This document shows, piece after piece, positions 51,502 through 51,915 of a DNA stretch of 64,000 nt (within the stretch, counting starts at the first letter, position 1; every line of letters begins with the position of its first letter). The notes beneath the pieces were generated by a model. It searched no databases. It was not told the DNA's origin and worked only from the letters and a program-made list of their open reading frames with translations. Made by a program: the position numbers and the translations under genes. Source of the stretch: Nitrospirota bacterium. Lineage in GTDB: Bacteria; Nitrospirota; UBA9217. The stretch spans positions 768,001 to 832,000 of the forward strand of contig CAVUCU010000001.1 of assembly GCA_963740085.1 (NCBI GenBank), written 5' to 3'.

Positions 51502-51732
51502 AAGAGATTTTGAACATCAACGCGCCTGGTGAGTATTTCACAAGGCTAAAACGGTAGTTGGCCGCATAAGGCACACCCTGTATTCGCGCGGACTCGCCAA
51601 CGGGGAGGAATTACAAAAACATCGGCATTTGATCTCTTTTGTCGAATAAAGCCCGGCCCGGGAAGTCGGGTGGATCTTGCATCATGAACGTTTCAACGGG
51701 TTTGGTGAGCTGAACTCAGCTCAGGAAGAGCT

Positions 51733-51915
51733 TCATGTCGGACCGCAATTTACAGGGCACGCCTTTGCAGTTTTCTTCTCGTCTTCGGGTAAATGGCACT
51801 TTTTATATTTCTTCCCGCTGCCGCACCAGCAGTCGTCGTTCCTGCCCGGCCTCTGAGCAGGCACGCTTTCCTCCTTGCCCTTCAACAAATTCAGTGCGCG
51901 ATCAAACAGTCCCAT
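51733..51915 (-). CDS. Small SEC-C motif protein; may extend through UGA (Sec) to 51721
   Basis: [27 protein letters not shown]-terminal [11 protein letters not shown]. Confidence 0.85.

Follow-up and report, generated by a model that had tools for sequence, protein, structure and literature searches.

A short SEC-C motif protein with an in-frame UGA near its C-terminus: a candidate new family of bacterial selenoproteins

Background

Where does the product of a short SEC-C gene from a Nitrospirota bacterium end: at the first TGA of its reading frame, or three codons further, with selenocysteine (Sec) inserted at that TGA? The gene lies in a 64,000-nucleotide stretch of contig CAVUCU010000001.1 (positions 768,001 to 832,000), which is called the window throughout this work. 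The original prediction, made from the letters of this stretch, regarded the TGA as a Sec codon and a hairpin just downstream of it as a bacterial SECIS element (bSECIS).

For such elements the published criteria are a loop of 3-9 nt, a stem of 4-16 bp, a G as first or second loop base, a distance of 16-37 nt between UGA and loop, and a minimum free energy (MFE) of at most -7.5 (PMC13188914, legend of Fig. 2). Domains of the SecA-like metal-binding kind are reported to hold either Zn or Fe, and those of SecA to dock to ribosomes and SecB (bioRxiv 10.1101/613315). YchJ, another SEC-C protein, is described as a redox switch which senses oxidants via C-terminal cysteines (PMC13377102). In this study the gene, its hairpin and its relatives in at least three phyla were compared, together with the distribution of the Sec machinery.

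Results

The SEC-C gene and its parts

The features on which the analysis is based are listed below.

51733..51915, minus strand: open reading frame of the SEC-C gene, 60 codons, ATG at 51915 and TGA at 51735-51733 (from the sequence and the list of open reading frames)
51920..51924, minus strand: Shine-Dalgarno-like GGAGG, 4 nt 5' of the ATG (read from the sequence)
51724..51915, minus strand: putative read-through coding sequence, 64 codons, MGLF...NCGPT-U-SSS; the annotated form ends after codon 60
51787..51843, minus strand: SEC-C (SecA-type metal-binding) motif, PF02810, residues 25-43, ligands C29, C31, C40 and H41
51745..51747, minus strand: codon of Cys57, the invariant partner of the proposed Sec (Cys-x3-Sec here, Cys-x4-Sec in other branches)
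51733..51735, minus strand: UGA proposed as Sec61; TGA in 72/72 orthologues
51724..51732, minus strand: three Ser codons 3' of the UGA, AGC TCT TCC
51721..51723, minus strand: proposed true stop codon, UGA here and TAA or TAG in other members, identical with the first 3 bases of the 5' arm of the hairpin
51706..51723, minus strand: bSECIS-like hairpin UGAGCUG-AGUU-CAGCUCA, 7 bp, loop 16 nt from the UGA, -9.6 kcal/mol

The 3' end of the reading frame is AAG GCG TGC CCT GTA AAT TGC GGT CCG ACA TGA AGC TCT TCC TGA, which gives the protein end ...NCGPT-UGA-SSS-UGA. The 60-residue protein matched PF02810 over residues 25-43 with E 8e-11 and 42 bits, above the Pfam cut-off of 20.4, and it contains the motif CxCxSGx8C[HC]. 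All four metal ligands (C29, C31, C40, H41) are invariant in 44/44 aligned members. With SecA, YecA and YchJ (PF02810) the family has in common the CxCxSGx8CH knuckle with conserved Ser and Tyr; it differs from them in being a stand-alone protein of about 64 residues, devoid of a UPF0149 or UPF0225 body. NCBIfam models of the YecA and YchJ type gave 14-33 bits with the read-through protein, against cut-offs of 120-158. Many members bear the JGI name YecA (UPF0149), which we rejected, as the match to PRK10396 is confined to the final 23 positions of the profile, at 29-31 bits versus 149.

An AlphaFold2 model calculated on alignment A3 of 44 read-through proteins had a mean pLDDT of 63, with helices at residues 4-14 and 42-51, the knuckle between them and an unstructured tail; this confidence was too weak for a fold search. 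Analysis of the gene neighbourhood at 34 loci revealed no neighbour which recurs beyond 6 closely related ones. Directly upstream of the SEC-C gene, at 52012-52586 (minus strand), a TMEM175-like channel gene is present as two overlapping open reading frames in different frames, 52134-52586 (150 aa, with a Pfam match) and 52012-52362 (116 aa), which flank a run of G at about 52190-52195; the split may reflect a frameshift or an assembly error. In four sequencing runs the SEC-C motif was matched by contigs of other organisms only, the remainder being DNA contigs.

The UGA codon is invariant in relatives

A protein search at E <= 0.01 returned 243 database clusters (90% identity), and the best 120 of these all (120/120) consist of a core of about 60 residues with a CG-x-x end. 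Since C-termini are rarely so sharp, the DNA of the relatives was read. Homologues ending in TAA or TAG at this codon, named in the original prediction as an outcome that would count against it, were not what we encountered: TGA occupies the position in 72/72 orthologues from three phyla, a raw count which overstates the statistics, as related genomes are not independent. These comprise 52/52 carrier genomes among the 401 genomes searched in the phylum of the window, with protein identities as low as 47%; 3 genes in 2 genomes (G401, G417) among 301 searched in the phylum of locus L066 (Phycisphaerales); 15 genomes in the phylum of locus L065 (Desulfobacterales), a count which omits four short matches (G964, G1018, G935, G992) whose profile match ends at position 50-52; and 2 metagenome contigs, L128 and L176.

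The next in-frame stop, located 1-5 codons further, varies: it is TGA in 45 cases, TAG in 6 and TAA in 4 (n=55). Within the L065 phylum the corresponding numbers are TAA 9, TAG 5 and TGA 1 (n=15).

As regards the way in which members were collected, the contig pattern search with alignment A1 matched the generic SEC-C motif, and the family members among its 80 loci were L013, L065 and L066. The metagenome pattern CWCGSGxKYKKCH likewise gave 80 loci, nearly all of them SecA C-termini or Met-aminopeptidase N-termini, the members being L128 and L176. Nearly all matches in the 301 genomes of the L066 phylum represented the generic motif too.

Small SEC-C relatives devoid of the Cys tail (L305-L307, L309, L310) terminate with TAA, TAA, TGA, TAG and TAA, respectively, and no hairpin was detected in these five, which were the ones scanned; a further relative of this kind, L014, which was outside the scan, ends with TGA-TAA. 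Two Cys-tail-less groups could be distinguished, both of which share the N-terminal helix and the knuckle with the family: proteins of 83-120 aa with a basic ...RVEARYAAQ...GGIVPP... tail, and proteins of about 57 aa with a Gly/Lys/Arg-rich tail and ordinary stops. They include P0152, P0158, P0171, P0174, P0181, P0197, P0201, P0209, P0216, P0223 and P0256 as well as loci L305-L307, L309 and L310, and both groups may be Sec-free sisters of the family. Among 149 more distant representatives, 57 also end a few residues past a Cys.

One metagenome contig, L158:340-389 (protein P0138), ends with ...NTGATPGGPR-TGA-GGC GCT TCC-TGA and contains no Cys in this segment. Its downstream region scored 20.1 bits (E 0.001) with covariance model R1, described below; its membership is ambiguous, and it could be a variant or a member in decay.

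Codons past the UGA

Three codons follow the UGA in 41/54 distinct members. Ser-Ser-Ser is encoded by 7 DNA versions, one of them with a switch from TCN to AGC, and the positional entropies of the second (middle) codon, 1.06, 0.17 and 1.76, correspond to Ser/Thr with a free third base. The L065 phylum has a different tail, U-x-Arg, in 14/15 genes, with Arg encoded as AGA (5), AGG (3), CGG (4), CGT (1) and CGA (1). An arginine kept across two codon boxes argues against a mere spacer of a non-coding RNA element. In their evolution the 1-5 codons past the UGA thus behave as coding sequence does, the evidence resting on few sites as the extension is so short.

The hairpin at the site

In the DNA of the window the hairpin was found where it had been placed by the original prediction, at 51723-51706, with 7 perfect pairs and a start 9 nt past the first UGA; its apical loop lies 16 nt from the UGA, with GU at loop positions 2-3. 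Stem (7 bp), loop (AGUU), spacing (16) and energy (-9.6 kcal/mol) are all within the bSECIS ranges. The absence of a U-tract, and with it the expectation of a poor terminator, also held, the terminator scan being silent there on the minus strand. An intrinsic terminator, defined by a GC-rich stem and a U-tract, was consequently rejected: the stem is followed by CCAAACCCGUUG and no terminator was predicted at the site. The concern that the hairpin could be a genome-wide repeat was not borne out; a search for its 16-nt core gave a single match, both in the window and in the 3.46-Mb genome, hence it is not a repeat.

Taken alone, the hairpin of this single sequence is weak evidence, hardly more than chance. 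Of 1500 sampled TGA-ending open reading frames from the same genome (>=150 codons), 67 have a hairpin within all four bSECIS criteria, and TGA is the commonest stop of long frames in this genome (53%; 3143 TGA, 1719 TAA, 1081 TAG). A 76-nt fold at the site was no more stable than its shuffles (z -0.40). Rfam gave no match at the gathering score in the window, and at the hairpin site there were chance-level matches alone. It is the comparison with relatives that gives significance.

We also noticed that AGCUC, the first five bases past the UGA, can pair with GAGCU of the 5' arm of the hairpin (51706-51732, minus strand), and when the first 45 nt are folded, this pairing is favoured over the hairpin. 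It could be a chance consequence of the AGCU palindrome, or a competing structure.

The hairpin covaries while its position is kept

The hairpin is not lacking in homologues, which was another of the outcomes held to speak against the prediction: it keeps its position, and its stem covaries. In alignment A2 (MAFFT, 54 distinct sequences) 89.9% of the cells at the 7 pairs can pair, compared with 28-38% when the 3' partner is slid. Double changes were found at 5/7 pairs, and 0/500 shuffles reached the covariation score. Distant branches have exchanged the stem altogether (GAGCCGC/GCGGCUC, AGGGCC/GGCCCU, ACAGGUG/CACCUGU, GGAUACC/GGUAUCC, GGUGCC/GGCACC), while the position and the early loop G are kept in spite of this exchange, in loops such as AGUU, GUU, GUC, CGUGA, GGC and GUG.

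The downstream regions of the family (57 distinct sequences) were scored against the 1500 control frames. The first three bSECIS criteria (i-iii: loop, stem, G and spacing) are matched by 56/57 family sequences and by 849/1500 controls, whereas all four criteria in a strict no-bulge test leave 45/57 versus 67/1500; the 12/57 hairpins which fail the strict energy test carry a mismatch or a bulge. On tightening the limits to a spacing of 16-20, a stem of >=5 and a loop of 3-5, the result was 51/57 versus 70/1500. The exceptions are L252, whose first two loop bases include no G, and L288, with no clean hairpin.

Covariance model R1, built from A2, detects L128, L176, L258, L158, L301 and L304. 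It misses the exchanged stems of most L065-phylum members, and for this reason hairpins of that phylum were scored by script.

The tail motif and the missing Cys form

The invariant columns in the 44 read-through proteins of A3 are M1, R25, N26, C29, C31, S33, K36, K38, C40, H41, C57 and U61. The tail motif CxxxCxxxU proposed for this protein does not describe the family, as C53 is lost in L092, L098, L241, L242, L244, L247 and others; the residues that persist are C57 and U61. Their spacing is Cys-x3-Sec in the phylum of the window and mostly Cys-x4-Sec elsewhere.

A homologue with Cys at the Sec column, one of the signs to be looked for, was not found. No Cys-for-Sec replacement occurs in the best 120 of 243 and the best 120 of 247 near-length matches, and none of the best 120 near-length matches extends past residue 60 of the read-through query. 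The same negative result was obtained among the best 120 of 123 longer matches, among the best 150 representatives, and in the genomes searched, including the selB-negative genomes of the phylum sample. Two proteins, both known from the protein alone, deviate at this end: in P0167 (68 aa) the residue aligned with the Sec column is Phe, and P0172 ends with NCGPC. The best longer match, P0304 (156 aa), is a family member called with TGA as Trp, ...CKTS-W-KST-W-AEFSS..., in a reading that crosses both UGAs and also the hairpin.

According to deep-Sep (PMC12013277), Cys homologues exist for nearly all selenoproteins. A selenoprotein family for which no Cys homologue is found is unusual, and homology-based searches would miss it on that account.

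The Sec machinery and its co-occurrence with the gene

The genome (7 contigs, 3.46 Mb) contains selA, selB, selC and selD, the complete set whose presence was to be confirmed. The tRNA-Sec was found with aragorn, selA adjoins selB, and selA, selB and tRNA-Sec are located together on contig C3 (190328-198518). The selD gene, at C1:750805-751725 (minus strand), about 17 kb before the window, has one in-frame TGA, ...SSCAG-U-AAKF.... This TGA is followed by a hairpin, AGUUCAGC-CCU-GCUGAACU.

Decoding of UGA as Sec had also been deduced from two other genes in the window. One of them is probably the gene at 19688-21004 (plus strand, UGA at 20627-20629) for ExtKL (seleno)protein, a multiheme c-type cytochrome, which was confirmed by NF040886 (591.8 bits at E 5.7e-178, the cut-off being 250) and belongs to an already known selenoprotein family. 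Five long read-through candidates in the window were considered, and selenoprotein support was obtained for this cytochrome alone. No hairpin like that of the SEC-C gene is present in the RNA downstream of the ExtKL UGA.

In the phylum of the window selB occurs in 195/401 genomes, that is in 50/52 carriers of the family versus 145/349 non-carriers, a contrast which is overstated, as these genomes are kin. The two carriers in this phylum with no selB are assemblies 89% and 63% complete, and taxonomic families devoid of selB (0/76, 0/40 and 0/28) have no carrier of the SEC-C family. Over both phyla, the carriers with no selB match are G005, G257 and G717. In the L065 phylum selB was found in 327/351 genomes and 14/15 carriers; being near-universal there, it makes co-occurrence uninformative.

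Discussion

Selenocysteine insertion and its rivals

From the invariant UGA, the covarying hairpin located with it, the coding-type evolution past it and the Sec machinery we infer Sec insertion at this codon. The UGA at 51733-51735 would thus encode Sec61, and the product would be a selenoprotein of 64 residues, not 60; our rough probability for this reading is 0.85. A ribosome arriving at the UGA would find, 9 nt 3' of it, the hairpin serving as bacterial SECIS, which would recruit SelB with Sec-tRNA(Sec), so that Sec enters as residue 61. Ser-Ser-Ser would then be added and translation would stop at the second stop codon, in the foot of the hairpin. The predicted product begins with an amphipathic helix, followed by a Cys3His metal knuckle of the SecA type (for Zn or Fe) and a second, charged helix; its C-terminal tail, with Cys57 and Sec61, is flexible.

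It is unlikely that the UGA is an ordinary stop, with a protein of 60 residues, a hairpin acting as some other 3' element (a stabiliser, a terminator lacking a U-tract, or a protein site) and a TGA kept as part of that RNA. Such a view would agree with the very short extension, with the failure to find a Cys homologue among the matches searched, with the unexceptional single-sequence fold, with the comparable hairpin at 67/1500 ordinary TGA stops, and with the strong conservation of hairpin nucleotides within the family of genomes to which the window belongs. It does not accommodate the synonymous change between UGA and hairpin, where Ser-Ser-Ser occurs in 7 versions and Arg in 5 codons from two codon boxes, nor a second stop which varies while the first never does. 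The hairpin, moreover, is placed relative to the UGA and not to the true stop, and the loop G is kept while stems are exchanged; no U-tract is present and no terminator is predicted. Presence of selB in 50/52 carriers, in a phylum where about half of the genomes have none, is equally difficult to reconcile with ordinary termination, as are the relatives lacking the Cys tail, which have no invariant TGA and, in the five scanned, no hairpin.

Two further explanations accept that the UGA is read through. One of them, which we consider very unlikely, is that Sec is inserted as a gauge of selenium supply, where the ratio of 60- to 64-residue forms or ribosome pausing matters and Sec chemistry does not. 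The extension, short and variable (1-5 residues), would suit a gauge, as would the failure to find a Cys form doing the same chemistry with no selenium; on the other hand, Cys57 is invariant 3-4 residues before the UGA and the residues after it keep their type (S/G, S/T, or x-Arg), which points to a selected Cys/Sec site, and no conserved downstream gene is available for regulation. Still less probable is read-through with no Sec, by near-cognate insertion of Trp or Cys or by a reassigned code. The database entry P0304, called with TGA as W, is what speaks for it, yet this entry does not stop at the second UGA either and continues through the hairpin (AEFSS = GCUGAGUUCAGCUC), and so resembles the outcome of a gene-caller setting; TGA is the commonest stop of long reading frames in the genome, and this reading offers no account of the link to selB and to the SECIS-type hairpin.

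Relation to known families

Insertion of Sec in the last few residues, the reading we prefer for this gene, has parallels in SaoC, KCU-star and UXX-star, whose database entries are likewise truncated at a conserved Cys-rich end; a Sec so close to the C-terminus places the SECIS in the 3' UTR. SaoC has a C-terminal Sec (Cys-Sec-COOH), and in its 3' UTR, shortly past UGA-UAG, a perfect stem of 7 bp closes a GGU loop (bioRxiv 10.1101/2022.07.06.499078). The SEC-C family differs from these proteins in its motif, Cys-x3-4-Sec and not CU or GxGU. Cys forms (CC-COOH) are known for SaoC, whereas none were found for the SEC-C family. No sequence relation exists to SaoC (NF040734), KCU-star (NF033934) or UXX-star (NF041114/NF041211), as these NCBIfam models did not match the read-through protein up to E = 1. 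The Cys-x3-4-Sec tail is absent from all described SEC-C proteins.

A flexible C-terminal Gly-Cys-Sec-Gly arm is known from animal thioredoxin reductase, where it cycles between selenenylsulfide and selenolthiol forms. There Cys and Sec are direct neighbours, the SECIS is of the eukaryotic kind, and a large flavoenzyme carries the tail. The likeness of the Cys/Sec arm offers a mechanistic lead only and implies no homology to the SEC-C family.

Neither Table 1 of a 2026 review (PMC13188914; 119 families) nor the main texts of BSepDB (PMC13326102) and deep-Sep (PMC12013277) contain an entry of this kind, the table listing no SEC-C or SecA family and the two texts no SEC-C selenoprotein. NCBIfam release 20.0 has no selenoprotein model for the read-through protein, and the families of Haft and Tolstoy 2025 (mSystems) were covered through Table 1 and NCBIfam; no literature tying SEC-C or SecA to selenoproteins or selenocysteine was found. 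Members are annotated as complete proteins of 58-63 residues under the names 'hypothetical', 'YecA' or 'SEC-C metal-binding domain-containing protein'. Judging by sequence comparison, this is most likely a new, so far unannotated selenoprotein family, and it occurs in at least three phyla, with no Cys counterpart found.

Possible function

A redox or metal-binding role of the tail is inferred from its composition of Cys57 and the proposed Sec61. More specifically, the Cys-x3-4-Sec tail might form a reversible selenenylsulfide or a soft-metal site and act as an arm for redox or metal sensing, attached to a partner-docking knuckle, an assignment which we offer as tentative and hold at somewhat below even odds. 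A bolder variant, which we regard as a long shot, is an obligate-Sec family in which a selenol arm is mounted on the SecA-type knuckle and the pair of 60- and 64-residue forms, made according to the supply of selenium, is a selenium- or redox-status switch acting on translation or protein export. If true, such a switch would represent a regulatory rather than a catalytic use of Sec recoding.

Conclusions

If real, the family is one which standard methods are by design prone to miss, as it offers no Cys homologue for alignment, near-zero coding sequence after the UGA and a 3' UTR SECIS lying over the true stop. It is not rare, with 243 database clusters around one member and carriers in three phyla. 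Through it a SecA-type metal knuckle would for the first time be linked with selenium, and studies of C-terminal Sec insertion would gain a model that is both small and tractable. For anaerobic Nitrospirota and for lineages of the sulfate-reducer type, selenoproteome counts would then rise.
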